Notes: generated by a model not told the origin, from the sequence alone. 64,000 nucleotides of DNA from an uncultured Gammaproteobacteria bacterium (GCA_964416445.1 CAYQEE010000004.1:47868-111867); one strand, 5' to 3'; shown: positions 2,173-23,748, numbered from the stretch's first letter. A program made the numbers and translations.

Positions 2173-2215
2173 ATGGCATATAATAGCTTTCCTGATTATT
2201 TTGTCAATAGCGATA

Positions 2216-2386: not shown

Positions 2387-2407
2387 AGAAAACACCTCCT
2401 TTCCATT

Positions 2408-2436: not shown

Positions 2437-2437
2437 G

Positions 2438-2468: not shown

Positions 2469-2619
2469 TTAGAGAATAGATCACCTCCTCATAATGTTTT
2501 TTCTATTAAGAATGCATTGATTATTGCATCAATATTATACTATCTGTAACATAAAAATTAAGAACAATTTTTGTAAGAAAATTATGAGAAGCAAACATTA
2601 TGCCCTTTTCAATCCGTTA

Positions 2620-5695: not shown

Positions 5696-6941
5696 ATGCT
5701 ATCCATTTATACGTAGTTAATTCCCTTAAGCCAACTGGACCTCGGGCATGAAGTTTCCCCGTTGCTGTTCCCATCTCTGCGCCCATACCAAATTCGCCTC
5801 CATCATGCAGTCTGGATGAACAATTAACCATTATTCCTGCTGCATCAACAGTGGCAATAAACTGATCAACTGTATGTGTATCTTCGGATATAATCACTTC
5901 TGTATGGCCATGTGTCCGTTGAGCTACAAAATGCAAAGCTTGTTTTACTGAAGATACTGTTTTAACAGCTAATATATTATCTAAAAATTCAGTAACATAG
6001 TCCTCTGAGGTTGCAAGGTGGCTATGTTTCATGTAGTGTTTGGATTTGGTATCAGCTCGTATTTCACATTTTTTTTCATATAAAAGCGTATCCAGTTTTT
6101 CTAAGAATTCCTGTGCAATCTGCTCATGTACGATAACAAGATCAAGAGCATTACAGACTCCGAACTTATTTGTCTTTGAGTTAACACAAACATCAAGTGC
6201 AATATCCAACCTTGCTGATTTATCTATATACATACATGCTCCCCCAGCGGCGTGATATAACACAGGAATACGAGATTTTTCAGCCACTGTAGTAGTCAGT
6301 TGATAACTCCCTCGAGGTATGACAACATCAATAAGATCATTTCTTGTTAAGACATATTCTATATCCGAGTGTGTTAATTCTAAAAAGGTAACAGCATGTA
6401 AACTGATACTAAATCGCTCAAGAACATCATGTACACATTTCACTAATTCTCTATTTGTCTGCAGAGCTTCAGATCCACCTTTTAAAATAACCGCATTACC
6501 AGCTTTAAGGCAAAGCGCCATTGCATCGATGGTTACATTTGGCCGTGATTCATATATCATTGCAATTACCCCTAACGGAAAACGCTTTTTTTGCAAAAGC
6601 ACAGCATTTTCTAATATTTTCTGTTCGATAATTTCACCAAGAACATCGTCTAGTTGTGCTACGGCTTCTAATTGATTTATCATTCCATTAAATACTTTTT
6701 CCGAAAGAGTTAATCTATCTAGAAATGCTCGAGTAAATCCTCCGTTTGTTGCCTGAGAAACATCACGGTTATTTGCCTTCATAATTCTCGTTTCATTCGC
6801 TCGCAAACACTGAGCAATTTCCATAAGAAGTTTTTTCTTCTTATAACCACGTACCTGTAATAGTTCTTTTGATGCTTTTTTCGTTAATTGTAATGATTTT
6901 TCAATCGATATATTCATATAATTAGTAAAGTCTTGTACCAA
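5667..6941 (-). CDS. proA: Gamma-glutamyl phosphate reductase (glutamate-5-semialdehyde dehydrogenase).
   Basis: ALDH-fold protein with the ProA signature (GVIAMIYESRPNVTIDAMALCLKAGNAVILKGG). It lies between proB and proC. Confidence 0.9.
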   Translation of the reverse strand: MVQDFTNYMNISIEKSLQLTKKASKELLQVRGYKKKKLLMEIAQCLRANETRIMKANNRDVSQATNGGFTRAFLDRLTLSEKVFNGMINQLEAVAQLDDVLGEIIEQKILENAVLLQKKRFPLGVIAMIYESRPNVTIDAMALCLKAGNAVILKGGSEALQTNRELVKCVHDVLERFSISLHAVTFLELTHSDIEYVLTRNDLIDVVIPRGSYQLTTTVAEKSRIPVLYHAAGGACMYIDKSARLDIALDVCVNSKTNKFGVCNALDLVIVHEQIAQEFLEKLDTLLYEKKCEIRADTKSKHYMKHSHLATSEDYVTEFLDNILAVKTVSSVKQALHFVAQRTHGHTEVIISEDTHTVDQFIATVDAAGIMVNCSSRLHDGGEFGMGAEMGTATGKLHARGPVGLRELTTYKWIAYGKGQTKCK

Positions 6942-7650
6942 TATGTTCTTCTTGAATAATTAATCTCGTCAAAATATTTTTTGTTTTCCCGTGGACAATC
7001 CAACTATTGATCCCAGCTTTTCTTGCCGTAAATGCTGCTTGTATTTTCGCTTTCATACCTCCTACTTCACCTTTATCTGTTTGTTTTATAACTGTTGCCA
7101 TTTTCATTCCTTGCGTAAAAACTTTTATTATCTGCATGTGTTGATCATAAACTCCATCCACATCCGTCATAAGAAGCAATTCATGTGCTTGGATTAGTTT
7201 TGCTATTTCACATGCTAAATTGTCATTTCCTTGAAAACTATGTAAGTCTACCATGTCATTTTCATTGACAATAACAACAATGTTTTGTTCCATCGCTTGA
7301 AGTAAAATAGTTTTTAAATTGTTTTTTTTCTTATGATCTTCGAATTCATTCTGCGTAAGAAGTAATTGAGCAATAACAATCTTATGTTTTTCAAATAGCC
7401 TAAAAAGATGAGAAGTTATATATGCCTGTCCTATTCCACCAAGCAATGATTTATTACATTCCATATCATCAACTGATTCGAATACTTTCCTTCCACAGGT
7501 TACTGCGCCAGATATCACAATAATCACCTGTACTCTATGGTTTTGAAGTATTTTAACTTGTTTAACTACAGTCTCCATTCGATACATATCGAGAATATTT
7601 TCACGAGTTGTTACAATACTTCTCCCAATTTTAATAACTATTTTTTTCAT
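6922..7650 (-). CDS. proB: Glutamate 5-kinase, short form without a PUA domain.
   Basis: Amino-acid kinase fold (MKKIVIKIG...VISGAV...). It is the first gene after the T-box terminator. Confidence 0.85.
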   Translation of the reverse strand: MKKIVIKIGRSIVTTRENILDMYRMETVVKQVKILQNHRVQVIIVISGAVTCGRKVFESVDDMECNKSLLGGIGQAYITSHLFRLFEKHKIVIAQLLLTQNEFEDHKKKNNLKTILLQAMEQNIVVIVNENDMVDLHSFQGNDNLACEIAKLIQAHELLLMTDVDGVYDQHMQIIKVFTQGMKMATVIKQTDKGEVGGMKAKIQAAFTARKAGINSWIVHGKTKNILTRLIIQEEHIGTRLY

Positions 7651-7920: not shown

Positions 7921-9198
7921 TCATTTCCATGAAGCTATTTCTCTTTTTACTGTTAATGCAGCTACTGCCGCTCCTTTTACACCTGCTTTTGAAATTCGAA
8001 CAAAGGTAATTCGTTTATGACAGATTTCTTGAGCATACATACTGACTTGATCTCTATAAAAGGGTACTCCCCAAAATACCGAACCTTCTATTGGGATAAT
8101 AACCCGTTTTTTAGGAAACTCCTTTGGAAACGTTACAATAATAGTTCCGATCATCGTACCAACTAACTGAGCAGATCGTTTTGTGATCCGTTGAGCAATT
8201 TCATAAAAAAGCTCATTATACATCTCATAGTTATCTTGTTGATTTGGGAGTCTTTTAAATCGTAATATATGACTCACATGCCCTGAAGAGTAAGTAGCTT
8301 GAAAATGTTTCGGAAGTATTCCCTGTTCAACATACAACTCGATAACACGTTGGAATGTTTGACCAAGGTATAATCCTGATATTTGCTTCTCTGCAATTCC
8401 TCCTCCGGGATTATTACTTTTTTCGTCGATATGCATAACAATTGGAGAAAGAGGAATATGGAAAAAACTTCCCGATTCTGTATTGTAGATATATTCTTTA
8501 ACGGTAATAGCAAGATTAAAACCCGTACCTAATACTCCACCTATTGCTGCCATTTTATCTGCTAACATAACTGCTGGAGTATCATTCAACACAACCAGCG
8601 GCACAGATCCAATAGGATACTTTTCATTAATAAAAGTAAGGAGTGTTTTTCCAATAGGTAATTTACTAATTCCTGGAATGATAAAATCTTTTGGTAATTT
8701 TTCCGAAGAAACAAGATCAATACCATACGCTTTTTTTAATGAAGTACCAGGGAATGAATAAATAATTGCGATAGCATGGGGTATTTTACCAAACAACCCA
8801 TCTAACTGAGCAAGAACATGTTCAAAAAAATCAAGTGGATTTGCAAAGATGTTTCTATTAATTTTCTTCTTAAAAAAAATATCATTCTTACCTTGTTTCA
8901 CGAGAACAGGTTTTGCATATTTATTGATTATGACTCGAGCACCATAGATATGTGTTCCTCCAATTTCTATAACAATTGCTTCCTCACCCGGAATAAGTTT
9001 TGTATGATGAACTCTTTTTAAATGAGTTGGAAGCATTTGTAAACTACTTTTCTCTTTTTGTAATCCACTTTGTAGTTCTTGTTTATACTTTTTAGAAATT
9101 TGCAGTAAATCATTTTCTGAAAATATCGTTAACCCAATCTTATCGACAAGGGTAGCAATATTAGACAAAGATTTGTGTGAACGTTTATTCGATTTCAT
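7921..9198 (-). CDS. Hexokinase-family sugar kinase.
   Basis: Hexokinase motifs are present: IEIGGTHIYGARVI (equivalent to LDLGGTN), AIIYSFPGT (equivalent to GFTFSFP), and GLYLGQ...RV in the C-terminal lobe. Confidence 0.7.
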   Translation of the reverse strand: MKSNKRSHKSLSNIATLVDKIGLTIFSENDLLQISKKYKQELQSGLQKEKSSLQMLPTHLKRVHHTKLIPGEEAIVIEIGGTHIYGARVIINKYAKPVLVKQGKNDIFFKKKINRNIFANPLDFFEHVLAQLDGLFGKIPHAIAIIYSFPGTSLKKAYGIDLVSSEKLPKDFIIPGISKLPIGKTLLTFINEKYPIGSVPLVVLNDTPAVMLADKMAAIGGVLGTGFNLAITVKEYIYNTESGSFFHIPLSPIVMHIDEKSNNPGGGIAEKQISGLYLGQTFQRVIELYVEQGILPKHFQATYSSGHVSHILRFKRLPNQQDNYEMYNELFYEIAQRITKRSAQLVGTMIGTIIVTFPKEFPKKRVIIPIEGSVFWGVPFYRDQVSMYAQEICHKRITFVRISKAGVKGAAVAALTVKREIASWK

Positions 9199-10863: not shown

Positions 10864-11148
10864 ATGACAGGTGGAAGTATCATAACAACAGATCATAAGA
10901 AAATTAAGAAATGGACAGAAGAAAGAGGTGGAAAACCAGCTGTTGTTAAAAATACTGCAAAAAGTGGAAAAGGTGCAGGAGTATTAAGAGTAAATTTTCC
11001 TCAATACTCTACAGATTCATCTCTTCAAGAAATTACTTGGGAAGAATTTTTTTCAATATTTGATGAAAAAAAACTTGCTTTTCTTTACCAAGAAAAAACA
11101 GCAGATGGAAAAGAAAGTCGATTCTTTAAGTTTGTTAGTAGAAAATAA
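10864..11148 (+). CDS. Conserved small hypothetical protein (MTGG..ITT.H..I..W.EERGG.PA motif family).
   Basis: Strong SD GGAGGTGAAATAA before the ATG. The N-terminal motif recalls a widespread family of roughly 90 aa whose name I cannot give with certainty. Confidence 0.55.
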   Translation: MTGGSIITTDHKKIKKWTEERGGKPAVVKNTAKSGKGAGVLRVNFPQYSTDSSLQEITWEEFFSIFDEKKLAFLYQEKTADGKESRFFKFVSRK

Positions 11149-11240
11149 CTAACTTATTTAACCGGTAATACCTCTTTTTTCTATTTGTTTTAATACTATT
11201 TAGTAGGTAACTAAATTGGTATACTAAATATCTATTTATC

Positions 11241-11855
11241 ATGATGGAAATTACTTCGGTAACTTTTTTTGGGTGTTCTTGTGGAGAACCCGGTGATAAA
11301 AATTTTGAGAGCGCAAAAGAAGTTGCAAAAGCTGTGGCTCTTTCAGGAAGAAAAGTAGTAAATGGTGGTGGACCGGGTATTATGTTAGCAGCAACTTTAG
11401 GAGCTAAGGAAGGAAACGGAAAAACTACTGTAGTCTATTATACTCCGGAGTTAGCTACACGTTTCGAAGGGAAAAAAGCTATTAATTATGCTGATAAACA
11501 TTACGAAGAAGCAAATTATGTCTTACGGACAAAGCGATTATTAGAACTTGGAGATGCCTATATTATCTTTAATGGTGGTACAGGAACTATATCGGAATTT
11601 GCTATGGCTTGGGGTGTCGCTCGTCTATATTTTGGACATCACCGACCGCTTCTTTTATATGGAAACTTTTGGCAAAATATCATGGATAATTTTAAAAAAT
11701 ATATGTTTGTCAGACCTGAAGAATACAAGATATTTACTATTGTAAATTCGCCATCGGAGGTATTATCTACGCTCGATCGGTATGACAAAATTCTCAGTAC
11801 AAATAGACATAATCATAAAAATTGTACTGGTGTCGAATGTTCTCTGTTTCTTTAA
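11241..11855 (+). CDS. LOG-family Rossmann-fold nucleotide-binding protein (TIGR00730-like).
   Basis: GGGPGIM...GGTGTISEFAMAW motifs typical of the LOG/SLOG family. Confidence 0.75.
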   Translation: MMEITSVTFFGCSCGEPGDKNFESAKEVAKAVALSGRKVVNGGGPGIMLAATLGAKEGNGKTTVVYYTPELATRFEGKKAINYADKHYEEANYVLRTKRLLELGDAYIIFNGGTGTISEFAMAWGVARLYFGHHRPLLLYGNFWQNIMDNFKKYMFVRPEEYKIFTIVNSPSEVLSTLDRYDKILSTNRHNHKNCTGVECSLFL

Positions 11856-12334
11856 TTTAGTTTTGTATTTTTTTCTCTTTGCCAATCTGCCAAAACTTCT
11901 TTGACATGAGTTAAAGGGTTTACGTTTTCATAAATTTTAACAATAACTCCTTGCGGATTTATAAGAAAAGATGTTCTATTTGTTCCCATATACTCTTTTC
12001 CCATAAATTTTTTAGGGTGCCAAACATCATATAAATCAACAACCTTTTTCTCTACATCTGCCAATAGCGGAAAAGGTAATTGATATTTTTGAGCAAACCT
12101 TTCATGACTTTTCACCGAGTCTGTACTAATCCCAAAGACTAATAACTCTCCTTTTGTAAAATGGGAAAAGTTCTCTCGAATACTACATGCCTCTTTGGTA
12201 CATCCAACAGTATCGTCTTTCGGATAAAAATAGATAAGTACCCATTTCCCCAAGTAATCGGATAACGAATGTATGTCTCCATTTTGATCCGGAAGACTAA
12301 ATTCAGGTGCTTTATCATGTACATGAAGTTTCAT
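11852..12334 (-). CDS. bcp: Thiol peroxidase (Bcp-type peroxiredoxin).
   Basis: FYPKDDTVGCTKEACSIRE peroxidatic-Cys motif in an AhpC/TSA fold. Confidence 0.85.
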   Translation of the reverse strand: MKLHVHDKAPEFSLPDQNGDIHSLSDYLGKWVLIYFYPKDDTVGCTKEACSIRENFSHFTKGELLVFGISTDSVKSHERFAQKYQLPFPLLADVEKKVVDLYDVWHPKKFMGKEYMGTNRTSFLINPQGVIVKIYENVNPLTHVKEVLADWQREKNTKLN

Positions 12335-12342
12335 AACTTTCG

Positions 12343-13665
12343 TTACTTTTGAACTCGATTAACATCCCGCCAACCAATATCTGTTCTAAAATGTAAGTTA
12401 TCACCTTCAATAGATATTTTACTCATCGCGTTATATACATTATCGCGCGCTTGAATTACAGTTTCACCTTCTCCGACTATATAAAAGAGTCGGCCACCCT
12501 GTACAAAATATTTTCCATCAGTTTTTTTTACACCCGCGCCATAAACGACAATATTCTGCATAGTTAATACCTTATCAAGACCAAATATTTCTTTTCCTTT
12601 TACTCCCGAATAATCTACAGGATATCCTTTTGCCGTTGCAGCAACTGCTATACGAGCTTTCCCATCTAATTTACATACATAAGTATCTAATTCCCCGCTA
12701 ATTACTTTTTGGATAAGTTGAAAATAATCATCCGTAATTCCAGGAAGTAAAACTTCTGCTTCCGGATCACCCCATCGTGCATTGAATTCAATAACATATA
12801 CTTTTTGATTTACTAATATCCCCCCTAAATATAAAATTCCTTTATATGGTCTTCCTTCTTTTGCCAATCCAATGACTGTCTTTCTAAATATACTCTCTAC
12901 CTGCTGCTGAATGCGTGAAGTAATGACAAGAGGTGGAGTGCTGCATCCCATTCCACCAGTATTTTCGCCATTATCCCCATCGTTAACTCTCTTATGATCT
13001 TGTGCATATCCAATTACAATAAAATTATGGCCATCGCATAATGCAAACGCCGAAAATTCTTCCGCATTTGATCCATCAGTACTTTTTATCCATTTTTCGA
13101 GAAGATATGTTTTTCCAGCTTCGCCAAATTTTTGCAGTTCTTTTATTTTTTTGATTGCATCCTTATTGTCGATTGCTGGTAATGCTCCTTTCCCCTCCGC
13201 TAACCCAGACGCTTTAACAAACCAAGGTTGATCTTTTTGTTCGTTAAGATAAGCAATTCCATCTTGTTGATTTTGAAAAATAACATATTCTGGCTGTGTA
13301 ATACCAACTCGCTGCATAAACTCACGAGAAAATGCCTTATTCCACTCGATCTCTCCTGCCGCTTTTGTAGGACCAAATACTGGTATACCATTTTCTAAAA
13401 GAATATCTACTAATCCTACAGCAACAGCATTATCTTGAGCTACATCCACCAATGTAACGTGTTCTTTTTTACAAATTTCAATAATTTCACGAACGCTTGT
13501 GGTTTTTAAATGCGGATAAATTGAAACTGGAACATGAACATTTTCTTGCATTAAATCATTACCTGGAATAGCAATAATTTTCATAACTTCTGGGTTCAAA
13601 GAATATTTATGAACTAATGCCGCTCCCCGTCCTCCTCCATCGATAACAACAACTATATGCTTCAT
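12343..13665 (-). CDS. purD: Phosphoribosylamine--glycine ligase.
   Basis: MKHIVVVIDGGGRGAAL N-terminus and ATP-grasp core. The start is taken at MKHIV rather than the longer ORF start. Confidence 0.85.
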   Translation of the reverse strand: MKHIVVVIDGGGRGAALVHKYSLNPEVMKIIAIPGNDLMQENVHVPVSIYPHLKTTSVREIIEICKKEHVTLVDVAQDNAVAVGLVDILLENGIPVFGPTKAAGEIEWNKAFSREFMQRVGITQPEYVIFQNQQDGIAYLNEQKDQPWFVKASGLAEGKGALPAIDNKDAIKKIKELQKFGEAGKTYLLEKWIKSTDGSNAEEFSAFALCDGHNFIVIGYAQDHKRVNDGDNGENTGGMGCSTPPLVITSRIQQQVESIFRKTVIGLAKEGRPYKGILYLGGILVNQKVYVIEFNARWGDPEAEVLLPGITDDYFQLIQKVISGELDTYVCKLDGKARIAVAATAKGYPVDYSGVKGKEIFGLDKVLTMQNIVVYGAGVKKTDGKYFVQGGRLFYIVGEGETVIQARDNVYNAMSKISIEGDNLHFRTDIGWRDVNRVQK

Positions 13666-13669
13666 AATT

Positions 13670-15091
13670 CTAGACAGTAAAATCAATTTCTTTTTTATGT
13701 TCCCCTATATCAATAGGATATTTACCAGTAAAACAAGACGTACAAAACATGTCCTCTGATAAGCCAGTCGCTCGAATTAATCCTTCATAGGAAAGATATC
13801 CTACTGAATCAGCTCCAACAAACTGAGTAATTTCCTTAAGAGACATCGTGGATGCAATGAGTTCTTGTTGTGTCGGAGTAGCAATACCATAAAAATCGGG
13901 GTATTTTACCGGTGGAGATGCACTTAAAAGATGTACTTCTTTTGCACCTGCTCGACGCACCATATGAACCAATTTTTTAGAAGTAGTTCCCCGAACTATA
14001 GAATCATCAATAAGAATAACTCTTTTTCCTTTTAAAATTTCTCTCATAGGAATAAGCTTCATAGAAACATCTTTTTGGCGTAGAACATGAGAAGGATTTA
14101 TAAATGTTCTATGAATATAACTGTTTTTGAGTAAACCATGATCAAATCGCATACCAGTTTCTTCTGCGTATCCCAAAGATGCAGGAATCGCTGAATTCGG
14201 TACTGGTACGACAACATCCGCTTCAATTTTATTTTCATGAGCGAGTTGCCTACCCATTTCTCTGCGAACTTCATTAATACTTTTTCCAAAAATAAAGCTA
14301 TCAGGACGTGAAAAATAAACTAATTCAAAAATATCCAATTTTTGATTCCCCGAAGCTAATTGAAATGAATGTAATCCTTTTTCGTCAATAACTATCATTT
14401 CACCCGGTTTTACATCACGAAGATACTCAGCGTTGATGCTATCAAGTCCACAGGTTTCCGAGGAAATTGCATAACCATTCTCCCCAATTGTTCCTATGCT
14501 AAATGGTCGTATCCCAAATCTATCTCGAACCCCTATTAATTTATCTTTCGTAAGAATTACTAACGAAAAAGCACCAGTAAAAAGTGGGAAACTTCTTTTA
14601 ACTGCTTCTTCGATGGTTTCTCCTCGATCCATATAATATTCTAAAACTTCATGCATTAGTTCACTATCATTAAGGTGATCAATTTTCTTCCCTGTTTTTT
14701 TAAGAAACGACTTTAGGGAATCGACGACTGGTAAATTGCCATTATGTGCTAAAGCAAGTAAGTTTTTATCAGAAGTAACCGGCTGAAAATGACCAAAAAT
14801 TCCACCAAATGTAGAATAACGATTATGACCAATCGCAAAATGACCAGGTAATTTTTCTAAAGATTCATCAGAATGAACTGAACCTACTAACCCTGGACCT
14901 TTATGCGTTCTAATTTGGGATCCATCAGATGTGCTAATTCCTGTCGCCTCCTGTCCCCTATGTTGAAGTGCCCATAATCCGGAACAAACCATTCGTGCTG
15001 CGTGGTGATTTTTTATATATACCCCAAATACTGCACACTTCTCATGAAGCTCGTTGCGATAAGAAATTAACTTTTGCCTTTTTACCATCAA
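13670..15091 (-). CDS. purF: Amidophosphoribosyltransferase with an N-terminal propeptide before the catalytic Cys.
   Basis: CAVFGVY Ntn-Cys motif, a PRTase motif (VILIDDSIVRGTT) and a C-terminal 4Fe-4S Cys ligand (CFTGKYP). Confidence 0.9.
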   Translation of the reverse strand: MMVKRQKLISYRNELHEKCAVFGVYIKNHHAARMVCSGLWALQHRGQEATGISTSDGSQIRTHKGPGLVGSVHSDESLEKLPGHFAIGHNRYSTFGGIFGHFQPVTSDKNLLALAHNGNLPVVDSLKSFLKKTGKKIDHLNDSELMHEVLEYYMDRGETIEEAVKRSFPLFTGAFSLVILTKDKLIGVRDRFGIRPFSIGTIGENGYAISSETCGLDSINAEYLRDVKPGEMIVIDEKGLHSFQLASGNQKLDIFELVYFSRPDSFIFGKSINEVRREMGRQLAHENKIEADVVVPVPNSAIPASLGYAEETGMRFDHGLLKNSYIHRTFINPSHVLRQKDVSMKLIPMREILKGKRVILIDDSIVRGTTSKKLVHMVRRAGAKEVHLLSASPPVKYPDFYGIATPTQQELIASTMSLKEITQFVGADSVGYLSYEGLIRATGLSEDMFCTSCFTGKYPIDIGEHKKEIDFTV

Positions 15092-15208: not shown

Positions 15209-16144
15209 ATGAATAGTCCTAAGATACTTGTTATCCTTACTATCATTTTTTGGAGTTTTGGTATCTTTCTCACCAGAGTGATATCTATGAAAACTCCACT
15301 ACTTAATCTTAATATCCAATTTTTCTTTCTGTTTCTCTTTTTTCTTATTTACAACATTGCATATTATCGTCATGCATTCATTCGAAAAATTTTCCATATC
15401 AAAATTGCTTATTTCTTCTTTGGATTATTTGGCTATTTTATTTATTTCATTGGGCTATTTCAAAGTTTTCGGCTTTTTAATGTGGCGTCTAATACAGCTA
15501 TATTGAACTATACCTTTCCTATTTTTACCGTTATTTTCCGAGACATTTTATTTAAATCTTCAAAACGAAAAACAAAAAAAGTGAGAATCCTTGAATATGG
15601 TGGATTGTTTCTTGGGTTTTTATCTATCATAATTGTTGCGACAAAAGGACAAGTTTTTACTTTACAATTTAGCAATATTGCTGCATTATTATGGGGGCTT
15701 CTTTCTGGAATTTCTTATGGAATTTTTAGCGCGTACAGTAGTAGTATAAAAACCGAAGATCAACCAGTTTTCTTTCTTTCTGCTACCTGTATAAGCTGGC
15801 TTATATCTCTCTTTATTGCCTTACCTGAATTTTCTTCTTTAAAACATCTTTCACTTTCAGATTATTTCTATCAAGCGGTACTTGCATTTATCGTTAACGG
15901 TTTGGGTTTTATAACATGGGCTCGGGCTAACAGATTAGCAAATATTTATCATATACCTATTTCGTCAATTGCATCTCTTTTATATATTCTTCCTTTTTTA
16001 TCTCTAACCATCATTGCATACTTTTTAAAAGAGACATCGCTCCACCATACTTATTTCGTATTAAGTCTTCTCTTATTAATTTTAGGCACCTACATATGTC
16101 AGAAATCAGAATCAATTTCTAATTTTCTTCATAATTCTTCTTGA
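15209..16144 (+). CDS. EamA/DMT-family 10-TM transporter, paralog 1.
   Basis: Multiple transmembrane helices. It shares blocks with the second paralog (ILNYTFPIFT, LLWGL..GISYG..SAYSSS, VNGLG.ITW..ANR). The start is chosen at MNSPK by alignment with the paralog; the longer ORF begins at 15074. Confidence 0.7.
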   Translation: MNSPKILVILTIIFWSFGIFLTRVISMKTPLLNLNIQFFFLFLFFLIYNIAYYRHAFIRKIFHIKIAYFFFGLFGYFIYFIGLFQSFRLFNVASNTAILNYTFPIFTVIFRDILFKSSKRKTKKVRILEYGGLFLGFLSIIIVATKGQVFTLQFSNIAALLWGLLSGISYGIFSAYSSSIKTEDQPVFFLSATCISWLISLFIALPEFSSLKHLSLSDYFYQAVLAFIVNGLGFITWARANRLANIYHIPISSIASLLYILPFLSLTIIAYFLKETSLHHTYFVLSLLLLILGTYICQKSESISNFLHNSS

Positions 16145-16180
16145 CAGACTGATGTTTTTCTTTTAGACTAAGCAAAGATA

Positions 16181-16329
16181 TTGAATCAAGAGTGATGGGG
16201 AGAGTTTTGGCTCGATGATCCATCCAGCAACCGGTTCGTAAAGCGGAAACGGTGCTCCACCCAAACCCGTAAGGGAAGGATTAGTTCGCAGTATTGCGGA
16301 AATGATAACCTCTCTTCGGAGAGGTTTTT
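16181..16329 (+). promoter_or_regulatory. SAM-I (S-box) riboswitch number 1 with an intrinsic terminator.
   Basis: AUCAAGAG...GGGGAGAG..GGCUCGAUGAUCC..CCAGCAACC...GGUGCUCCACCC...CCCGUAAGGG matches the SAM-I aptamer hallmarks. It is followed by the terminator CCTCTCTTCGGAGAGG+T7 and then the Hcy-methyltransferase ATG. Confidence 0.75.
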
Positions 16330-16343
16330 TTGTGGAGAATTTT

Positions 16344-17375
16344 ATGAAGCAACAAAAAGAAGGTATTCTAGAAAGATTAAAAAGGAATATTGTCCTCGGA
16401 GCTGAAGGATATATTTTTGAACTGGAACGTCGAGGATATATTAAAGCAGGAGCATTCGTTCCTGAAGTGATTGTCGATTTTCCAAATGCTGTAAAAGAAT
16501 TACATAGAGAATTTCTGCATGCTGGAAGTGAAGTTATTGTCGCTCTCACCTATTATGCTCATCGGGAAAAACTTAAAGTGATTGGGAGAGAAAATGAATT
16601 AGAGTCTATGAATCGAAAAGCTGTTCAAATGGCAAATGAGATAGCAAGAGAAGGTAATGCACTTGTCGCTGGAAATATTTGTAATACATGGGTCTATGAT
16701 CCTCAGAATCCTAAAAAGACTGGCGAATTAGTACGAAATATGTATGAAGAACAAATCCAATGGGCCATAAGCGAAGGAATCGATTTTATTATTGCCGAAA
16801 CACTTGAATATGTCGAAGAAGCAGTTATTGCCCTTGAAGTCATTAAAAAATATAAACTTCCTGCAATGGTAACATTCGCAGCTACCTATGATAAAAGCAA
16901 GGATGGGTATTCATGGATTGAAGGTTGCAAGATCCTTGAAGATAACGGTGCAGATATTGTTGGATTTAACTGTATACGAGGACCAAAAACAATGCTCCCC
17001 TTGTTAGAAAAACTACGAAAGAAAGTTTCTTGTTATATTGCAGCTCAACCAGTTCCCTATCGAACAACAAAACGATTACCGGCATTTCAGTTTCTTAAAT
17101 ATGAAAAAGGAAATGCATTTCCTTTATTTTTGGAGCCTTTTTTGGCAACTCGATATGAGATGGCACAAGCAACAAAAATTTTTCAAGAAATAGGAATTAA
17201 TTATATTGGAATCTGCTGTGGCGCAGGGCCACATCATGTACGGGCGATGGCTGAGGCTCTCGGAAGGATAGTACCTGCAAGCCGCTACTCTCCGGATATG
17301 TCACAACATGGTTTATTAGGTGATGATGCAGTAGTGAGTAATCACGAAAAAGGATTTCTCAAAAAATGGAAATAG
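16344..17375 (+). CDS. Homocysteine S-methyltransferase family protein (BHMT/MmuM-like; Pfam S-methyl_trans).
   Basis: Hcy-binding TIM-barrel motifs (GAEGYIFELERRGY, IGICCGAGPHH). The start is at MKQQKEG, immediately after the riboswitch terminator. Confidence 0.75.
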   Translation: MKQQKEGILERLKRNIVLGAEGYIFELERRGYIKAGAFVPEVIVDFPNAVKELHREFLHAGSEVIVALTYYAHREKLKVIGRENELESMNRKAVQMANEIAREGNALVAGNICNTWVYDPQNPKKTGELVRNMYEEQIQWAISEGIDFIIAETLEYVEEAVIALEVIKKYKLPAMVTFAATYDKSKDGYSWIEGCKILEDNGADIVGFNCIRGPKTMLPLLEKLRKKVSCYIAAQPVPYRTTKRLPAFQFLKYEKGNAFPLFLEPFLATRYEMAQATKIFQEIGINYIGICCGAGPHHVRAMAEALGRIVPASRYSPDMSQHGLLGDDAVVSNHEKGFLKKWK

Positions 17376-17394
17376 TGAAATATTTATTACCACA

Positions 17395-18549
17395 ATGAGA
17401 TTTACAACAAACGCCATACATATCGGTAATGAACCAAATACGCTTGAAGGAGGAAGTGGTGATGTTGTGGTCCCTATTCATTTAGCAACTACATTCGCAA
17501 GAGAAAAAGTATTAATTCCAACGGCTGGATATGATTATTCTCGTTCAGGAAATCCTACAAGAGCTGCTTTAGAAAAAAATCTTGCTTGTCTCGAACATGG
17601 GTCCTATGCATTTGCATATACTTCAGGCCTTGCTGCAATAACCAATGTCTTGTTTCTACTTAAACCGGGAGATCATATACTAGCAATTGATAATCTTTAT
17701 GGTGGAACATATCGGCTCTTTACTCAAATATTCCAAGCATGGGGAATTTCTCTCAGTCTAGTTTCATTTTCTCAAATGTCTGATCTTGCGAAACACATAC
17801 AAAGAAATACAAAATTAATTTATCTTGAATCTCCAACAAACCCTTTGCTTAAGATAATTGATCTTCAATCTACTGCTGATTTTGCAAAAAAATATAATAT
17901 ACTTACTGCTATTGATAATACCTTTGCTTCTCCTTATTGGCAAAATCCACTTGATTTCGGTATAGATATTGTCATTCACTCTGCAACAAAATACTTGGGT
18001 GGACATAGTGATGTAACAGCAGGATGTGTCATAGTAAACGACGATACCCTCGCTCATCGGCTAGGTTTTTTACAAAATGCTATTGGAGCAATTCTATCCC
18101 CTTTTGATAGTTACAACTTATTAAAAGGAATTAAAACATTACCGATTCGAATGAAAGAGCATGAAATGAATACTCAAAAAGTTGTAAACTTTCTACAATC
18201 CCACAAAAAAATCAAAACTATTTATTATCCCGGCCTCGTCGAACATCCAGGACATCATATTGCAAAAAAACAGATGAGAGGATTTGGTGGAATTCTTTCG
18301 TTCGAATTGCTGGGGGATATTACAAATACTATTCAATTCTTGGAAAAACTTACCTTAATCCATTTAGCAATTAGCGTTGGGGCTGTCGAATCTCTTATTG
18401 AACACCCAGCAACAATGACCCATGCTGCTGTTCCAAAAGAAGAGCGAGAAAGATGTGGACTGTCCGATACACTTATTCGATTATCAGTTGGTCTGGAAGA
18501 TAGTGATGATTTACTTAATGACCTATCCCAAGCACTTGATTCTATTTAA
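17395..18549 (+). CDS. Cys/Met-metabolism PLP-dependent enzyme (cystathionine gamma-synthase/beta-lyase or O-acetylhomoserine sulfhydrylase family).
   Basis: PLP-lysine motif HSATKYLGGHSDVTAG and overall MetB/MetC/MetY architecture. Confidence 0.85.
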   Translation: MRFTTNAIHIGNEPNTLEGGSGDVVVPIHLATTFAREKVLIPTAGYDYSRSGNPTRAALEKNLACLEHGSYAFAYTSGLAAITNVLFLLKPGDHILAIDNLYGGTYRLFTQIFQAWGISLSLVSFSQMSDLAKHIQRNTKLIYLESPTNPLLKIIDLQSTADFAKKYNILTAIDNTFASPYWQNPLDFGIDIVIHSATKYLGGHSDVTAGCVIVNDDTLAHRLGFLQNAIGAILSPFDSYNLLKGIKTLPIRMKEHEMNTQKVVNFLQSHKKIKTIYYPGLVEHPGHHIAKKQMRGFGGILSFELLGDITNTIQFLEKLTLIHLAISVGAVESLIEHPATMTHAAVPKEERERCGLSDTLIRLSVGLEDSDDLLNDLSQALDSI

Positions 18550-18551
18550 CT

Positions 18552-19508
18552 ATGCGTAACCCAAAATTTTATGTTTTCTTAACTATTATTTTATGGAGTT
18601 TCGGCTCTCTTCTCACACGTCTTATTTCGATAGATTCTCAGTTCATTTCTTTAACATTACTATTTTTTTTCACATTTCTTTTTTTTACTATTTTTTACTA
18701 TTTCCAGAATAAAAAGGATTTTTTCATAAAACTAAAACAACTAAAAATTTCTTATTTATTTTTCGGACTATTTGGTTATTTTTTTTATTATCTTGGACTA
18801 GTACAAAGTTTCCATTTATTTAAAAGTGCTTCAGAAACTACAATATTAAATTATACCTTTCCTATTTTTACTATTATTTTTACCGATCTCTTCTTTCGAG
18901 TATATACTCCGAAATCAAAATCTATCAAAATAATAGAATATTTTGGTATTTTTATAGGATTTTTAGCGGTCATTATACTTGCAACCAACGGGAACATTGC
19001 TACGCTCCATTTGACAAATACTCCAGCTCTTTTATGGGGATTAGTCGCTGGTATTTCATATGGACTATATAGCGCGTACAGCAGCAGTGTACCTTCAGAG
19101 AATCAGAGTATATTTTTGCTCAATTCGATTTTTTCAAGTCTCATATTTTCAGTTTTCATAGCAATTCCTCAAATAAACATTCTCCATAAGGTAACTAGTA
19201 AAGATTATTTCATTACAGCATTGCTTGCTTTAGTTGTGAATGGACTTGGCTATATTACCTGGACTAAAGCGAACAGATTCGCTAAAGAAAAAAATATTTC
19301 TATTTCAGAGATAGCATCTTTCTTATTTATATTACCGATACTTAACTTGCTTATTATTACCATCGTGTTAAAAGAAAATTTTTTATTTCAACCATTTTTT
19401 CTTATAACGCTCATTTGTATTCTTCTCAGCTCATTGCTTTGTCAGAAGCCTGAATTTTTTGTCAAATTAGTAAACCGCAACGATATAACAAGTGTTAATC
19501 AAGAGTGA
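18552..19508 (+). CDS. EamA/DMT-family transporter, paralog 2, co-transcribed with the S-box met genes.
   Basis: A 3-nt gap after the PLP enzyme. Conserved blocks are shared with paralog 1. Confidence 0.7.
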   Translation: MRNPKFYVFLTIILWSFGSLLTRLISIDSQFISLTLLFFFTFLFFTIFYYFQNKKDFFIKLKQLKISYLFFGLFGYFFYYLGLVQSFHLFKSASETTILNYTFPIFTIIFTDLFFRVYTPKSKSIKIIEYFGIFIGFLAVIILATNGNIATLHLTNTPALLWGLVAGISYGLYSAYSSSVPSENQSIFLLNSIFSSLIFSVFIAIPQINILHKVTSKDYFITALLALVVNGLGYITWTKANRFAKEKNISISEIASFLFILPILNLLIITIVLKENFLFQPFFLITLICILLSSLLCQKPEFFVKLVNRNDITSVNQE

Positions 19509-19642
19509 TGGGAAGAGTTTTGGCTCGGTGATCCATCCAGCAACCGATTCGTAAAGCGGAAACGGTGCTCCACCCAAACCCGTAAGGGAGGATTAATTAG
19601 CTTTATGCAAAATTATAACTTCTCTTTTGAGAAGTTTTTTTT
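19495..19642 (+). promoter_or_regulatory. SAM-I (S-box) riboswitch number 2 with an intrinsic terminator.
   Basis: The aptamer is nearly identical to number 1 (UUAAUCAAGAGUGAUGGGAAGAG..GGCUCGGUGAUCCAUCCAGCAACC..GGUGCUCCACCC..CCCGUAAGGGAGGAUUAA). The P1 helix is UUAAUC/GAUUAA. The terminator AACTTCTCTTTTGAGAAGTT+T8 is followed directly by the ATG at 19643. Confidence 0.75.
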
Positions 19643-20890
19643 ATGAAAGCAGAAACACAATTTCGATTAAGAACAGTTATTATTGGTGGAGGAATTAGTA
19701 GTTTAGGAATTCCTATTGCTGCCGATCGCCATCAGCAGCTTACTCCACTGCTGGAAAATGGATTAGTTATCATTAATCCTACCTATCAACTTGGGTTAGG
19801 TGGACTTAATAATGTTCGAATTAATTCTAATTCCGGTGGAAATGATTTTCCTGAACATGTAGCTTCTGATGGCGTTTATCAGGACGTCATGCAAAATCAG
19901 CATACACGAAGGCTTCAAAGCCGTGGAAACGATCCAGTACCACTTCCCTGGGTCGTTGCATTCACGAAAGATCTTGGCAAAACAACTGGAGCAGTATTAG
20001 AAAGTCACCCAAATGAGCATACAGGAGTAAAACAAGCAAAAGTAGAAAAAGTAATTTTTGATAGGAAAGCGCAAACGTATAAGGCATTTTCACATGAAGG
20101 TTTTATAAGTGAAGGTGAGAATCTAGTATTCGCAACAGGAGGGAAAGAGACTCTCCACAATGAACTTAATGAATATGCTAACAAGGTCATCTTTTCTGGT
20201 ACGATCTTACAAGGCGACCTAACAAAAACTGAACTATTACTCAAACAAAATCCCAAAGCACCAATTACTATCATTGGTGCTTCGCATAGCGCCTTTGCCA
20301 TGCTTAAAGAATTAGTAACATATACTGATGCTAAAGACAGATCAATTGTTATGATATACAACTATAATCCACCTACCGCATATTTTAAAAATCTCGAAGA
20401 ATATGACGCATTCATTAGAGAAGCTCAAGAAAAGAAAGCACAATTCTACCCTGCCATTCGCTCAGTTGATCCACAGAATAATAGTATTAATCGGTTTGAA
20501 GGAGTACGAAACGAGGCTAAAGATTTACTTAAACGGATTGTACTAGGAGAATTTCCCAATATTACTTTTCAGAAAGTCACTGAAGGGCTTTCTACTCTTC
20601 CACTCCTTAAGCAATCTGCGTTTATCGGACAAGCTACAGGACTTGCGAGCGAACGAATTCCAATTTATGATACTTTAGGCCAAGAAATAGGTCCCTATAC
20701 TTATAACGGACAGGTACTTGTAGATGATCAAGGAAGACTACTTGATCACCAAAAACAAGTTTTACACCAGGGATATGGAATAGGCATAGGTTATTCATTG
20801 AGACGAGGATCTATTGCTCTTGATGGAGTTAATTTCTACTATGGACAAATAGGTGACTTAGTACTTTCACAGTTACTTCCAGAAAGATGA
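19643..20890 (+). CDS. Cysteine-free flavoprotein-like protein with two dinucleotide-binding motifs; unknown function, under SAM-I control.
   Basis: N-terminal VIIGGGISSLGIPIA and mid-protein ITIIGASHSAFAML Rossmann-type motifs, plus an LVFATGG block. The arrangement recalls class-B/N-hydroxylating flavin monooxygenases. There is no Cys in the whole protein. Confidence 0.5.
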   Translation: MKAETQFRLRTVIIGGGISSLGIPIAADRHQQLTPLLENGLVIINPTYQLGLGGLNNVRINSNSGGNDFPEHVASDGVYQDVMQNQHTRRLQSRGNDPVPLPWVVAFTKDLGKTTGAVLESHPNEHTGVKQAKVEKVIFDRKAQTYKAFSHEGFISEGENLVFATGGKETLHNELNEYANKVIFSGTILQGDLTKTELLLKQNPKAPITIIGASHSAFAMLKELVTYTDAKDRSIVMIYNYNPPTAYFKNLEEYDAFIREAQEKKAQFYPAIRSVDPQNNSINRFEGVRNEAKDLLKRIVLGEFPNITFQKVTEGLSTLPLLKQSAFIGQATGLASERIPIYDTLGQEIGPYTYNGQVLVDDQGRLLDHQKQVLHQGYGIGIGYSLRRGSIALDGVNFYYGQIGDLVLSQLLPER

Positions 20891-20900
20891 TAAATACGTT

Positions 20901-21617
20901 ATGATACATAATATGTTTCAACATTATTTAAAAACAATTGGACTAAATAAACTTGCTAAGGAAGTAACCAATTATTCTTTAAATAACTTTGTAAATGAAG
21001 TATTCCAACAAAGTAAAAAAGAGTTTACTGATGCTGAACTTACTTCATTATATACATATGACATTCCAAAACTCTCCCCTGATGGTTCATGTAGCATTTT
21101 AGAAGAAAAAAACGACATCCCATATAATTTGGCGCATACTTTTGGATTAAGTGAAGATGTGACAAAACTAGCAAGTAATCCTCATACGTTACGATTATGG
21201 AGACTGCATCAAATTACACAGAAAGTTTATGACAAAACTCGTGTCGCGTGGTTTGGAATATACCGAAAAATAGAAAGCACGAAAGCTTCTTTTCTTGTTA
21301 AAGAATCGTATCTTGGTATATTCAGTAGACCAGAATTTCCACTTACCGAAATATTTGCCTTAAAAAGCAATAATTCAACCGTTGGTCTGCGTGGTAAAGC
21401 AATTGTTATCCAAGATATCGAGAATCATTCAGGTGCATATTATAAATGCGACGGAAAGGTACAAAGCGAATTCTGCACTCCCATTTTCAATAAGCGGAAT
21501 GATATTATTGGTATCCTCGATGCAGAAGCATTTCCTAAGAATTTTTTTGCTGATGAGCGACTCCTTGAAATTGCAAAGGTAGCATATGATTTAGGAGAAA
21601 TTAATTTAGGGATGTAG
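20901..21617 (+). CDS. GAF-domain protein resembling free methionine-(R)-sulfoxide reductase (fRMsr), with an N-terminal extension of about 110 aa.
   Basis: WFGIY...KCDGKVQSEFCTPIF...IGILDAEA matches fRMsr blocks (WVGFY, IACDxxSxSEIVVPI, IGVLDIDS). Confidence 0.55.
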   Translation: MIHNMFQHYLKTIGLNKLAKEVTNYSLNNFVNEVFQQSKKEFTDAELTSLYTYDIPKLSPDGSCSILEEKNDIPYNLAHTFGLSEDVTKLASNPHTLRLWRLHQITQKVYDKTRVAWFGIYRKIESTKASFLVKESYLGIFSRPEFPLTEIFALKSNNSTVGLRGKAIVIQDIENHSGAYYKCDGKVQSEFCTPIFNKRNDIIGILDAEAFPKNFFADERLLEIAKVAYDLGEINLGM

Positions 21618-21658: not shown

Positions 21659-22498
21659 TTGTATATGGTTGATTCAGTCGATACAAATTTACCTGATGCT
21701 CATGAAATTGGGCATAGTAGCATAAAACATGAACAACATTCTGTTCATGAAACTCATCGAAGACATGATCATGTATCATCAAAGGATGCTATGCAGTCTC
21801 CTGAGACAACTGATGAAGCAGAAAAAATAGCATCAACCCGAGCACAACTTAACGCTCAGTTATCTGTTATCCATTCGGAACATCACAGAGAAACTCTTCA
21901 AAGAACATCCGTCGATGCATTAACAAAAATAAACGTCGCTGCCCATTTTTTAGTTCCTCCAAAAGGCAGTGTTATTGAGAATCCTGATATTTTATTACCA
22001 AAAGTATGGAAAGTTGCACATTCGATTGATACTCTAGTTCGTGCATACCCTCAACGAACACAGCAGCACGATAATGAAGGTCACTCTGCTGAAGTTATTA
22101 CTCTTCCTCACCAAGGTCTTTTAAGGAACAAAACAACTAAAATTATCAGTTATGATCATACACAAGGCCGCCTGATACGGATAGAAGAATACCTGGGGAA
22201 AGATAAGTTAATAAGTGTCGTTACTATGCCAGTTAATGCCAAAGATGCAGCAAATCTTATCAATGATGGTCAAATTTTTTCGAACCGTATCGGACCAAAC
22301 GAGAAGAGGAATGTTTTACAACCAGGAACACTGACTCAAACGGAAAATAGCCGTGATGGAAATTCAGCCCAAACTCAGGCATATGCCATGGAAGCAGTAA
22401 ACGCTCTTCAAGTTATTTCACGGTCATTTGAGAATACTCCTGTGGGAAAAGCCGCTCAAGTAAAAGCAGCTTCAGAAACATTAGTTCTTGCAGCTTAA
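21659..22498 (+). CDS. Hypothetical protein with a His-rich N-terminus (HEIGHSSIKHEQHSVHETHRRHDH).
   Basis: 279 aa ORF with Q/A/H-rich composition unlike the flanking genes. Confidence 0.45.
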   Translation: MYMVDSVDTNLPDAHEIGHSSIKHEQHSVHETHRRHDHVSSKDAMQSPETTDEAEKIASTRAQLNAQLSVIHSEHHRETLQRTSVDALTKINVAAHFLVPPKGSVIENPDILLPKVWKVAHSIDTLVRAYPQRTQQHDNEGHSAEVITLPHQGLLRNKTTKIISYDHTQGRLIRIEEYLGKDKLISVVTMPVNAKDAANLINDGQIFSNRIGPNEKRNVLQPGTLTQTENSRDGNSAQTQAYAMEAVNALQVISRSFENTPVGKAAQVKAASETLVLAA

Positions 22499-22509: not shown

Positions 22510-23610
22510 CTATTGGGCGATAGTCTCCCAGGGAAACCCCTCTCGTCCAAAATGTCCGTACACAGCTGAAGACAAATAAATTGGCCTTCTCAGTTTCAAT
22601 TTTGAAAGAATTCCTGCAACTGACGTATCTAATATTTTGTTTGCAAAATCATTTAAAGCTTTTTTACTTACTTTTTCTGTTCCAAAGGTTTCTACGGTTT
22701 GCATAAGCGGCTTATGTGCTCCAATAAAATAGGCTAAACCAACTTCCGCTTTACTTGCTAATTTATGGGCAACAATATTCTTTGCAATGTAACGAGCAGC
22801 ATATGCCCCTGAACGATCTACTTTTGTTGGATCTTTTCCGCTAAAAGCTCCTCCTCCTACTCTTGCAAAACCACCATACGTATCAACAACGATTTTTCTT
22901 CCGGTAATTCCAGAATCTGCTGAGGGACCACCATGATGCCAGACCCCCGTACCATTAATAATTACATTCTTTATGTTTATGGTAAAACCATGTTCTGCTA
23001 AGACAGGAGAAATTACCTCTTTATATAATCCATCTTTTACTTCTTTTAAAGAGACTGATTCTTTATGGGGAACAGCTAATACGACTGTTGTTACTTTGTA
23101 TGGTTTACCGTTTTTGTATTCAATAGTTACTTGACTCTTCCCATCTGGGCGAAGATATGGAAGGATCGCTTTTTCTCGTACTTCATCAATTTTTCTCGTT
23201 AGTTCATGGGCTAAGATAATAGGTAACGGCATAAACTGTTTTGTCTGTGTACATGCATATCCAAACATCATTCCTTGGTCACCTGCACCTTTATGATCAA
23301 CCCCTACTTGAATTTCTGGTGATTGTTCATGAATATAAATAGAAATTGGAGAATTATAAGAAAACCCCGATCTACTGTCCGTATAACCTAATCGTTTAAT
23401 TTGTTCTCGAGCAATTTTTTCAAAAGGAATTTTTGCATTAGCAGTAACTTCGCCAGCTAAAATAACATGGCCATGGGCAGCCATCGTTTCTACAGCAGTA
23501 TGCCCATTTGGATCTTGCGCAAGAACTGCATCGACAATAGCATCACTAATCTGATCACAAATTTTATCGGGATGACCTGCGCATACTGATTCAGATGTAA
23601 AAGTGTTCAT
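22510..23610 (-). CDS. metK: S-adenosylmethionine synthetase.
   Basis: GHPDKICDQISDA, GAGDQG and DTYGG signature blocks. Confidence 0.95.
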   Translation of the reverse strand: MNTFTSESVCAGHPDKICDQISDAIVDAVLAQDPNGHTAVETMAAHGHVILAGEVTANAKIPFEKIAREQIKRLGYTDSRSGFSYNSPISIYIHEQSPEIQVGVDHKGAGDQGMMFGYACTQTKQFMPLPIILAHELTRKIDEVREKAILPYLRPDGKSQVTIEYKNGKPYKVTTVVLAVPHKESVSLKEVKDGLYKEVISPVLAEHGFTINIKNVIINGTGVWHHGGPSADSGITGRKIVVDTYGGFARVGGGAFSGKDPTKVDRSGAYAARYIAKNIVAHKLASKAEVGLAYFIGAHKPLMQTVETFGTEKVSKKALNDFANKILDTSVAGILSKLKLRRPIYLSSAVYGHFGREGFPWETIAQ

Positions 23611-23748
23611 AAAAAAACTCCCCCAAATGGAAGAGTTATGGTTATTATCTTTCCACGTTGGGCTAGAAGAAGCACCATATGTTTTTACATTGGTTGCTGG
23701 CAGGTCATTGGGCTAGTTCCCTCGCTGCTCTCTAGATAAGTTAAGAAT
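23611..23748 (-). promoter_or_regulatory. SAM-I (S-box) riboswitch number 3 upstream of metK.
   Basis: Minus-strand RNA CUUAUCUAGAGAGCAGCGAGGGAACUAGCCCAAUGACCUGCCAGCAACC...AUGGUGCUUCUUCUAGCC...GAAAGAUAA shows the P1 pairing UUAUCU/AGAUAA and the GAGGGA, GCCC.AUGA, CAGCAACC and GGUGCU hallmarks. The terminator CUCUUCC..GGGGGAG+U7 abuts the metK ATG. Confidence 0.8.

Follow-up and report, generated by a model that had tools for sequence, protein, structure and literature searches.

The stretch analyzed here, 64,000 nucleotides from an uncultured Gammaproteobacteria bacterium (GCA_964416445.1, CAYQEE010000004.1:47868-111867; hereafter the window), carries between purF and metK three predicted S-adenosylmethionine (SAM)-responsive riboswitches of the SAM-I, or S-box, class, which we term RS1, RS2, and RS3. 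On the plus strand, a first transporter gene of the drug/metabolite transporter (DMT)/EamA type, EamA-1 (15209..16144), is divergent from purF and has no riboswitch ahead of it. RS1 (aptamer, 16181..16285; expression platform, 16271..16333) follows, and behind it stand a homocysteine S-methyltransferase gene, hmt or hmt1 (16344..17375), a gene for a Cys/Met pyridoxal phosphate (PLP) enzyme of the cystathionine gamma-synthase/lyase family (17395..18549), and a second, paralogous DMT/EamA transporter gene, EamA-2 (18552..19508). RS2 (aptamer, 19494..19597; expression platform, 19584..19642) comes next and precedes three open reading frames (ORFs), ORF5 (19643..20890), ORF6 (20901..21617), and ORF7 (21659..22498), the last one before the convergent SAM synthetase gene metK (22510..23610, minus strand). 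The leader of metK is RS3 (23616..23742, minus strand; aptamer, 23642..23742; terminator, 23637..23616). The initial annotation had described this region as a duplicated module, an EamA transporter followed by a SAM-I riboswitch, flanking a methionine operon. We consider it probable instead that the interval holds three OFF-switch leaders, that RS2 is a young paralogue of RS1, that the EamA genes owe their placement to gene order, and that EamA-2 serves hmt.

Assignment of RS1 and RS2 to the SAM-I class

Scanned against the Rfam SAM-I model RF00162 with an E-value threshold, both elements match the model over its full length (positions 1-108), RS1 at 41.0 bits (E = 1e-6; 16180..16286) and RS2 at 41.4 bits (E = 7.7e-7; 19493..19598), and the conserved blocks AUCAAGAG, GAUGA, CAGCAACC, GGUGC, and GGAUUA are all present in the two matches. 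At its default cutoff, cmscan calls neither copy, and its sole SAM-I call in the whole window is the metK leader (23642..23742, minus strand; 52.5 bits). Because RS1 and RS2 lie just under the gathering cutoff of 44.4 bits, a failed cmscan call, if read literally as evidence against the class, would be a false negative. Homologous leaders at six other loci (L003, L010, L013, L016, L067, and L082) likewise score 33-40 bits against RF00162, so that the sub-cutoff score is a property of the SAM-I variant and not of RS1 and RS2 themselves. This variant has a short P4 helix, of 3 bp with a GUAA loop. Against a custom covariance model, R1, built from 46 homologous aptamers of other genomes and metagenomes with the window copies left out, RS1 reaches 108.8 bits, RS2 102.8 bits, and the metK leader 62.2 bits; over the 64 kb the model finds no further credible copy. 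A weak R1 match at 55095-55187 (plus strand; 14.6 bits, E = 0.29) was taken as noise.

Among the 46 homologues, P1, P2, and the proximal part of P3 are paired in 93.6% of cells, against 19-48% in slid controls. The count used a hand-written P1/P2/P3 structure, as the RNAalifold consensus dropped P1 and gave an odd P4, and it left out P4 and distal P3, where the MAFFT alignment is displaced around the GGGA(A)GG indel. Fifteen of the 21 counted pairs are invariant, and compensatory changes occur in four pairs only, in P2b and outer P1. In minimum free energy folds of the single sequences, both leaders form P2, P3, and P4, and RS2 forms P1 as well. A DNA pattern scan recovered the core ATCAAGAGTGATGG...TGAYCCATCCAGCAACC unchanged in 32 representative genomes from several phyla and on 77 metagenome contigs; the carriers include many Patescibacteria, metagenome-assembled genomes (MAGs) labeled "uncultured Gammaproteobacteria," a Weeksellaceae MAG, and an Acidiferrales MAG. 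A literature search that combined riboswitches with Patescibacteria returned nothing relevant. RS1 and RS2 are genuine SAM-I aptamers, as the initial annotation had proposed, and they are predicted to bind SAM.

Expression platforms and the genes they serve

Each aptamer is followed by an antiterminator, a terminator, and the next start codon. In constrained folds of RS1, AAGGGAAGG pairs with CCUCUCUU in competition with the terminator; in RS2, constrained folds give a pairing of AAGGGAGG with CUUCUCUU that likewise competes with the terminator. AAGGGAAGG and AAGGGAGG are the P4/P1 3' sides of their respective aptamers, and CCUCUCUU and CUUCUCUU are the 5' strands of the terminators. A terminator scan places one stem at 16307-16326 and the other at 19617-19636, both followed by a T-run, ahead of the start codons at 16344 and 19643. 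A C-to-U change in the RS2 terminator relative to that of RS1 is offset by a G-to-A change on the opposite strand and is thus compensatory. Upstream, RS1 has a putative sigma-70 promoter (TTGACA-17 nt-TAGACT, 16141..16169; 10 of 12 matches in a promoter scan) that overlaps the EamA-1 stop. That stop, at 16144, lies 36 nt ahead of RS1 P1, and the TGA stop of EamA-2 (19506-19508) lies inside RS2, in keeping with the claim that each EamA gene is followed by a SAM-I element within 50 nt.

By its platforms and gene order, RS1 targets hmt, the PLP enzyme gene, and EamA-2, RS2 targets ORF5-ORF7, and RS3 targets metK. The purF-metK interval would then comprise three S-box transcription-attenuation leaders, each serving the gene group downstream of it. 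With SAM plentiful, P1 would be closed, the intrinsic terminator would form, and transcription would stop just ahead of the start codon; with SAM scarce, the P4/P1 3' side would pair with the terminator 5' strand as the antiterminator, and the operon would be read. We infer from the sequences of the leaders that all three units are repressed by SAM. RS1, RS2, and RS3 are ordinary 5' leaders of downstream genes, and the unusual arrangement previously seen here, a riboswitch lying 3' of a transporter gene, is not borne out.

The first of these units is compact. The gap between hmt and the PLP enzyme gene is 19 nt and that between the PLP enzyme gene and EamA-2 is 2 nt, with no terminator between them in the terminator scan, so that the three genes form one unit behind RS1, with EamA-2 as its last gene, as the proposal of their co-transcription had it. 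The hmt product matches Pfam S-methyl_trans at 151 bits and has the YitJ-type PRK08645 as its best NCBIfam match. The PLP enzyme matches Cys_Met_Meta_PP at 485 bits, and its top NCBIfam matches fall under their equivalog cutoffs. EamA-1 and EamA-2 match Pfam EamA (PF00892) at 42.5 and 55.1 bits, and both pass its gathering cutoff of 28.2 bits. MetK was identified by Pfam and by TIGR01034 (470.7 bits).

Two further features of the leaders concern translation. In the region 19629-19645, the sole Shine-Dalgarno-like sequence before the ATG at 19643 is GAGAAG, in the 3' strand of the RS2 terminator stem. The same layout, with the start codon right behind the T-run and the terminator 3' strand holding the only such sequence (GAGAAG or GGAGAGG), is found in RS2, RS3 (23610-23625, minus strand), and the leaders of two related loci, L118 (~2990-3004) and L122 (~13607-13625, minus strand). 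Because the Shine-Dalgarno-like sequence lies only in the 3' strand of the stem, the terminator hairpin could block translation besides ending transcription. The last five codons of EamA-2 together with its TGA (19494-19508) lie within the RS2 P1 5' strand, J1/2, and the start of P2. This overlap is not conserved, there being a gap of 37 nt in L003 and of 20 nt in L082. More speculatively, ribosomes that end translation of EamA-2 could keep the RS2 aptamer from folding on polycistronic transcripts, and then only transcripts from RS2's own promoter would be SAM-gated at RS2.

The EamA paralogues and the ancestry of RS2

Along the two stretches of EamA gene plus leader, nucleotide identity is ~50-65% in the EamA coding DNA, with peaks to 80%, and 30-36% in the last ~70 nt before P1; it reaches 94-96% in the aptamer core and is 64-80% in the expression platform and ~50% in the downstream genes. 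From P1 to P1, RS1 and RS2 are 93% identical, and RS3 is 64-65% identical to either one. The initial annotation had counted about three differences between the aptamers and noted that the platforms have diverged; the cores are indeed three substitutions apart and the platforms have diverged, but the cores also differ by one indel. Its further claim that the EamA genes are more divergent than the aptamers holds as well, since the two proteins share 51% identity over 301 aa, and pairwise alignment of the leaders and of the EamA proteins agrees that the aptamers are far more alike than the coding regions.

The raw 96% identity nevertheless overstates how recent the copy is, because the variant is near-invariant in P1, P2, and P4 across many phyla. 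Within the class, conservation reaches 90% or more in about 64 of the 105 columns of the aptamer (~60% invariant), and aptamers of unrelated loci reach 87-95% identity. The informative sites are the distal P3 stem-loop and ~20 other free positions, and there are ~41 variable columns in all. At these sites, RS1 and RS2 agree in 17 of 18 P3 positions and in 76-83% of the variable columns, the lower figure being one in which a MAFFT shift at the indel inflates the differences (10 counted versus ~7 by eye). The corresponding values for RS1 and its L118 orthologue are 71% and 68%, and RS1 and the L122 leader agree in 45% of the variable columns. The background averages 44% in P3 and 39% in the variable columns, and its 99th percentile over between-locus pairs is 84% and 72%. 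The equivalent leader pair of L003 is 67% identical overall and 27% identical in P3. On these alignments, RS1 and RS2 are mutual closest relatives at free positions, moderately and not dramatically so.

We then compared the gene order of orthologue loci, which were retrieved by protein search, contig look-ups, and aptamer DNA pattern scans; a genome scan with EamA-2 as the lone protein gave 546 pattern matches, none of which was confirmed. The protein search, which covered 5.8 billion proteins, showed the EamA family to be a rare one of 36 clusters. In the tree, EamA-1 groups with P0013, P0014, P0015, and P0017 and EamA-2 with P0002-P0010, and because these are separate orthologue clades, the EamA-1/EamA-2 split predates these lineages. 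EamA-2 is nearer to P0002 of L003 (60%) than to EamA-1 (51%). In the EamA-1 clade, L119 (PurF, 81%) has purD-purF and a divergent EamA-1 as in the window (purD, 12343-13686; purF, 13670-15091; both minus strand) and then a convergent gene, and in L120 EamA-1 is followed by a PIG-L gene; a scan with model R1 finds no riboswitch after the EamA-1 orthologue in either locus. In L118, the closest relative with EamA-1 (69-70%), one has to go 1.8 kb downstream, past an IS1595 transposase, to reach an RS1-type leader. This IS1595-family transposase gene and two small ORFs occupy 1903-2748 (minus strand) between the EamA-1 orthologue and the leader. In the EamA-2 clade, the order is S-box, hmt, EamA, S-box, X, hmt2, topA in L003; S-box, core MetE, S-box, SAM hydroxide adenosyltransferase, hmt, EamA, topA in L082; and hmt, EamA, GAF_2, topA in L121. 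Model R1 finds no riboswitch after the EamA-2 orthologue in L082 or L121. What these loci conserve is the pair hmt and EamA-2, in that order, behind an S-box; an EamA gene with a riboswitch after it is not the unit that recurs. The EamA genes would precede RS1 and RS2 by gene order, EamA-1 as an old paralogue beside purF and EamA-2 as the end of the RS1 operon.

The leaders beside purF point to RS1 as the older copy. The promoter context of RS1, CTTGAC...TTTTCTTTTAnAnT, is kept in the purF-side leaders of L118, L104, and L122, and the terminator stem CCTCTCTTCGGAGAGG is identical in RS1, L118, and L104 and present as a close variant in L122; the P3 of these three leaders differs from that of RS1. 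Because promoter and terminator are common to these leaders, RS1 is read as the ancestral leader at the site. RS2 has an RS1-type platform (76% identity, versus 47% to RSb of L003) and has nothing in common with RS1 upstream of P1, the 60 nt before P1 being 60% identical, which is the background level. In L122 (MetK, 79%), a single S-box stands between purF and metK and drives X, hmt2, and an orthologue of ORF6, so that the interval in the window appears to be an expanded, two-leader version. The simplest reading of these sequences is that, in this lineage, RS2 was recently copied from the RS1 leader or is a resident leader that RS1 converted. Whether the ~150-nt leader was duplicated or the aptamer underwent gene conversion, the event would be far younger than the EamA-1/EamA-2 split. 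Across the four purF-side leaders (window, 16120-16346; L118, 2790-3083; L104, 800-1040, minus strand; L122, 13600-13830, minus strand), the first genes are non-homologous: hmt1 in the window, an apparently MetF-like ORF, by eye, in L104, X294-hmt2-GAF in L122, and an unannotated ORF in L118.

If functional constraint were the only cause of the near-identity of RS1 and RS2, the two would be old, independently inherited leaders with no recent duplication or conversion, as could be argued from a core that is unchanged in 32 genomes and 77 contigs, from the share of columns that are at least 90% conserved, and from the 87-95% identity reached by aptamers of different loci. We regard this as unlikely, because RS1 and RS2 are each other's best match precisely at the free columns, above the 99th percentile, and because they agree in 17 of the 18 P3 positions, where the background identity averages 44%. 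The RS1 orthologues of L118, L122, and L104, moreover, keep promoter and terminator and yet differ in P3, and the L003 pair shares little of its P3. The proposal of the initial annotation, one segmental duplication that made two EamA plus SAM-I modules in which the transporters diverged and the aptamers stayed identical or were homogenised, is distinctly unlikely. Two paralogous EamA genes do stand directly upstream of near-identical aptamers, the EamA-1 orthologue of L118 also has an RS1-type leader downstream, with the transposase between, and an S-box also follows the EamA-2 orthologue of L003. The transporters, however, belong to different clades, EamA-2 being closer to its L003 counterpart than to EamA-1, and DNA similarity is at background between the EamA 3' ends and P1. 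The S-box after the L003 gene is of another leader type, with a platform 47% identical to that of RS2, and drives different genes, and no riboswitch lies downstream of the EamA orthologues of L119, L120, L121, and L082. What remains of that proposal is that a leader copy or conversion is reasonable; the module and its segmental duplication are not upheld.

Most improbable of all is control of the preceding EamA genes by the riboswitches, as SAM-dependent 3' terminators or 3'-untranslated region elements. The terminator scan finds no separate intrinsic terminator between either EamA gene and the next aptamer, so that EamA read-through transcripts must meet the riboswitch terminator, and the EamA-2 stop codon itself sits in RS2. 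Termination past a complete ORF, however, alters the expression of that ORF in no known S-box system, and a start codon comes directly after every leader. In relatives, this leader type precedes hmt, metF-like, X-hmt2, or metK genes whatever lies upstream, and the adjacency to EamA is not conserved.

We thus retain the picture of three SAM-repressed 5' leaders with RS2 as a recent paralogue of RS1. Several observations weigh against it. RS1 and RS2 score short of the RF00162 cutoff; the ancestry of RS2 is judged from only ~40 informative sites, at which the 76-83% agreement with RS1 is just moderately above the 68% of the L118 orthologue. RS2 has no convincing promoter, the candidates found by eye in the EamA-2 3' end being TTGTCA-17-TCAAAT and TTGTCA-19-TATAAC; with such weak candidates, RS2 may work chiefly by internal attenuation of transcripts begun at RS1. 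The sole curated EamA subfamily match of the transporters, YddG (NF050091), is weak (37.1 and 37.2 bits against an equivalog cutoff of 300), which leaves EamA-1 and EamA-2 outside YddG and every other curated EamA subfamily in NCBIfam, and an association of S-box with EamA was not found in the searchable literature.

A broader possibility, which we put forward tentatively, is that the S-box leaders of this lineage are recombining regulatory cassettes, in which conversion or crossover homogenises neighbors and swaps the operons behind them. An aptamer of ~100 nt that is near-invariant and present in several copies per genome could be a substrate for conversion or crossover. The footprints fitting such exchange are the window pair, with cores 96% and platforms 76% identical, an L082 pair with platforms 96% and aptamers 82% identical, and the non-homologous cargo of the purF-side leader in four genomes. 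The L082 leaders (6788-6812 and 8081-8104) are the reverse of the window pair, a pattern that suggests repeated partial homogenisation between neighboring leaders.

Horizontal acquisition of the region as an island was considered and rejected, as GC content is even, at 31-40%, over 10-28 kb. The taxonomic signals are mixed. The window as a whole has ~35% GC and numerous TTG starts. All named relatives of its MetK (~70%) belong to the Microgenomates group of the candidate phyla radiation (CPR), namely Roizmanbacteria, Daviesbacteria, and Levyibacteriota, and several "uncultured Gammaproteobacteria" MAGs that carry the aptamer have MetK or Hmt identities of 68-70%. The presence of both purF and purD, as in the window, is unusual for CPR genomes.

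Regulon cargo and known counterparts

The orthologue of EamA-2 stands directly after hmt in L003, L082, and L121, and in the window the PLP enzyme gene lies between the two. The window hmt is 70-71% identical to the hmt of these three loci, within a range of 70-84% for the shared hmt. This adjacency in relatives supports a predicted role of EamA-2 as a methionine-related transporter; EamA-1 is outside the S-box regulon. EamA-2 would be switched on at low SAM and would most likely move the methyl-donor substrate of hmt (S-methylmethionine or SAM) or a related methionine-cycle compound. In L082 (6685-11307), two serial S-box operons are found, the first with a short "core" MetE (Meth_synt_2 only, 366 aa). 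The second encodes hmt and EamA behind a 420-aa DUF62-type SAM hydroxide adenosyltransferase. That these two genes have an enzyme that cleaves SAM as their neighbor is a hint that methionine may be obtained from imported SAM itself. A second conserved S-box operon type comprises the gene denoted X (294-326 aa, weak Methyltransf_25 match, 31% identity between loci), followed by hmt2, which encodes another homocysteine S-methyltransferase (L003, 11152-13050; L122, 11821-13609, minus strand); the hmt2 copies of L003 and L122 are 57% identical to each other and 23% identical to the window hmt.

Two transport systems bear on this role. In Escherichia coli, mmuP and mmuM encode an S-methylmethionine permease and a homocysteine S-methyltransferase and are on when methionine or SAM is low; MmuP belongs to the amino acid-polyamine-organocation (APC) family and is controlled by the MetJ protein. 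We propose that hmt and EamA-2 follow this pattern, in which a transporter and a homocysteine S-methyltransferase share a transcript. EamA-2 differs in being a DMT/EamA and not an APC protein, under a riboswitch and not MetJ. Among EamA/DMT proteins, Rickettsia prowazekii RP076 and Chlamydia trachomatis CTL843 transport SAM, and in Chlamydia S-adenosylhomocysteine too; the two are only ~20% identical, and neither is riboswitch controlled (PMC3104491). These DMT proteins have two EamA domains and are likened to EamA-2 at the family level only, but because they move SAM, an EamA fold can carry the ligand of RS1. Their hosts differ from the window organism in that the latter keeps metK. On the SAM-cleaving enzyme of L082, the EamA-type SAM transporters, and the mmuP-mmuM pairing, we favor import of a methyl donor, S-methylmethionine or SAM, as the probable function of EamA-2.

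The genes behind RS2 have no Pfam or NCBIfam match. For ORF5, a word-indexed search returned ORF5 alone, and an exhaustive HMMER search gave a family of 390 cluster representatives that has no Pfam model and whose members show weak Pyr_redox_2 and Lys/Orn-oxygenase matches. The AlphaFold (AF2) model of ORF5 has a predicted local distance difference test score (pLDDT) of 93.7 and a predicted two-domain FAD/NAD(P) flavoprotein fold; the nearest solved folds are N-hydroxylating flavin monooxygenases, at template modeling (TM) scores of 0.55-0.59 and ~13% identity. A Saccharimonadales MAG, locus L036, has the order S-box, GAF_2, ORF5-like, topA, and its S-box-controlled ORF is 27% identical to ORF5 (E = 2e-36). 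The C terminus of the GAF-like ORF6 aligns to the GAF_2 protein of L036 at the CD..SE..P[IV]F motif (E = 2e-6), and ORF6 is 57% identical to the GAF gene that ends the L122 S-box operon. Flavoprotein or GAF genes thus lie at 19643-21617 in the window, 5308-7267 (minus strand) in L036, and 11112-13765 (minus strand) in L122. ORF5 and ORF6 may extend the SAM/methionine regulon by two new members, which perhaps act in methionine-sulfoxide or related salvage. ORF7, a 279-aa hydrophilic orphan rich in His, Ser, Thr, and Gln with a TTG start, has no family match, and none of the retrieved loci or libraries contains a homologue of it; ORF7 may be lineage-specific or not a real gene.

The control itself resembles that of the Bacillus subtilis S-box leaders (yitJ, metIC, metK), with a predicted four-helix SAM-I aptamer, competing antiterminator and terminator, and a predicted OFF response to SAM. 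The target set is also alike, comprising a protein with a homocysteine S-methyltransferase domain, a Cys/Met PLP enzyme, and metK, as is the presence of several paralogous leaders per genome. Unlike those leaders, the copies in the window belong to the short-P4 variant that falls under the Rfam cutoff and is typical of uncultured, CPR-like lineages. The window packs three leaders into 8 kb, two of them near-identical; the terminator 3' strands of RS2 and RS3 double as ribosome-binding sites; and the genes served encode, among others, an EamA transporter and unannotated enzymes. A tandem riboswitch consists of two aptamers in one 5' untranslated region ahead of one coding region. RS1 and RS2 are similar in being two sensors of the same ligand in series on one strand, and if RS2 lacks its own promoter, ORF5-ORF7 would pass two SAM checkpoints. 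We rejected the designation because the two lie 3.2 kb apart with three ORFs between them, each has a full platform, and RS1 has its own promoter.

The understanding of the S-box mechanism is unchanged by these results. What is new is an EamA transporter as a conserved member of the S-box regulon, a young leader paralogue, and an unannotated flavoprotein/GAF cargo. The initial reading of the sequence was right and its framing wrong, in that the downstream genes, not the upstream ones, own the riboswitches. A default Rfam threshold would wrongly dismiss RS1 and RS2, and riboswitch censuses of metagenomes are affected in that this SAM-I variant, common among uncultured CPR-like bacteria, is systematically under-called. 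RS2 points to an unannotated pair, a flavoprotein with a predicted likeness to monooxygenases and a GAF-like partner, that belongs to the SAM regulon of at least two distant lineages, and the rare hmt-EamA pair, conserved under an S-box, is a candidate transporter system for S-methylmethionine, SAM, or another methionine-cycle compound in organisms of reduced biosynthesis.

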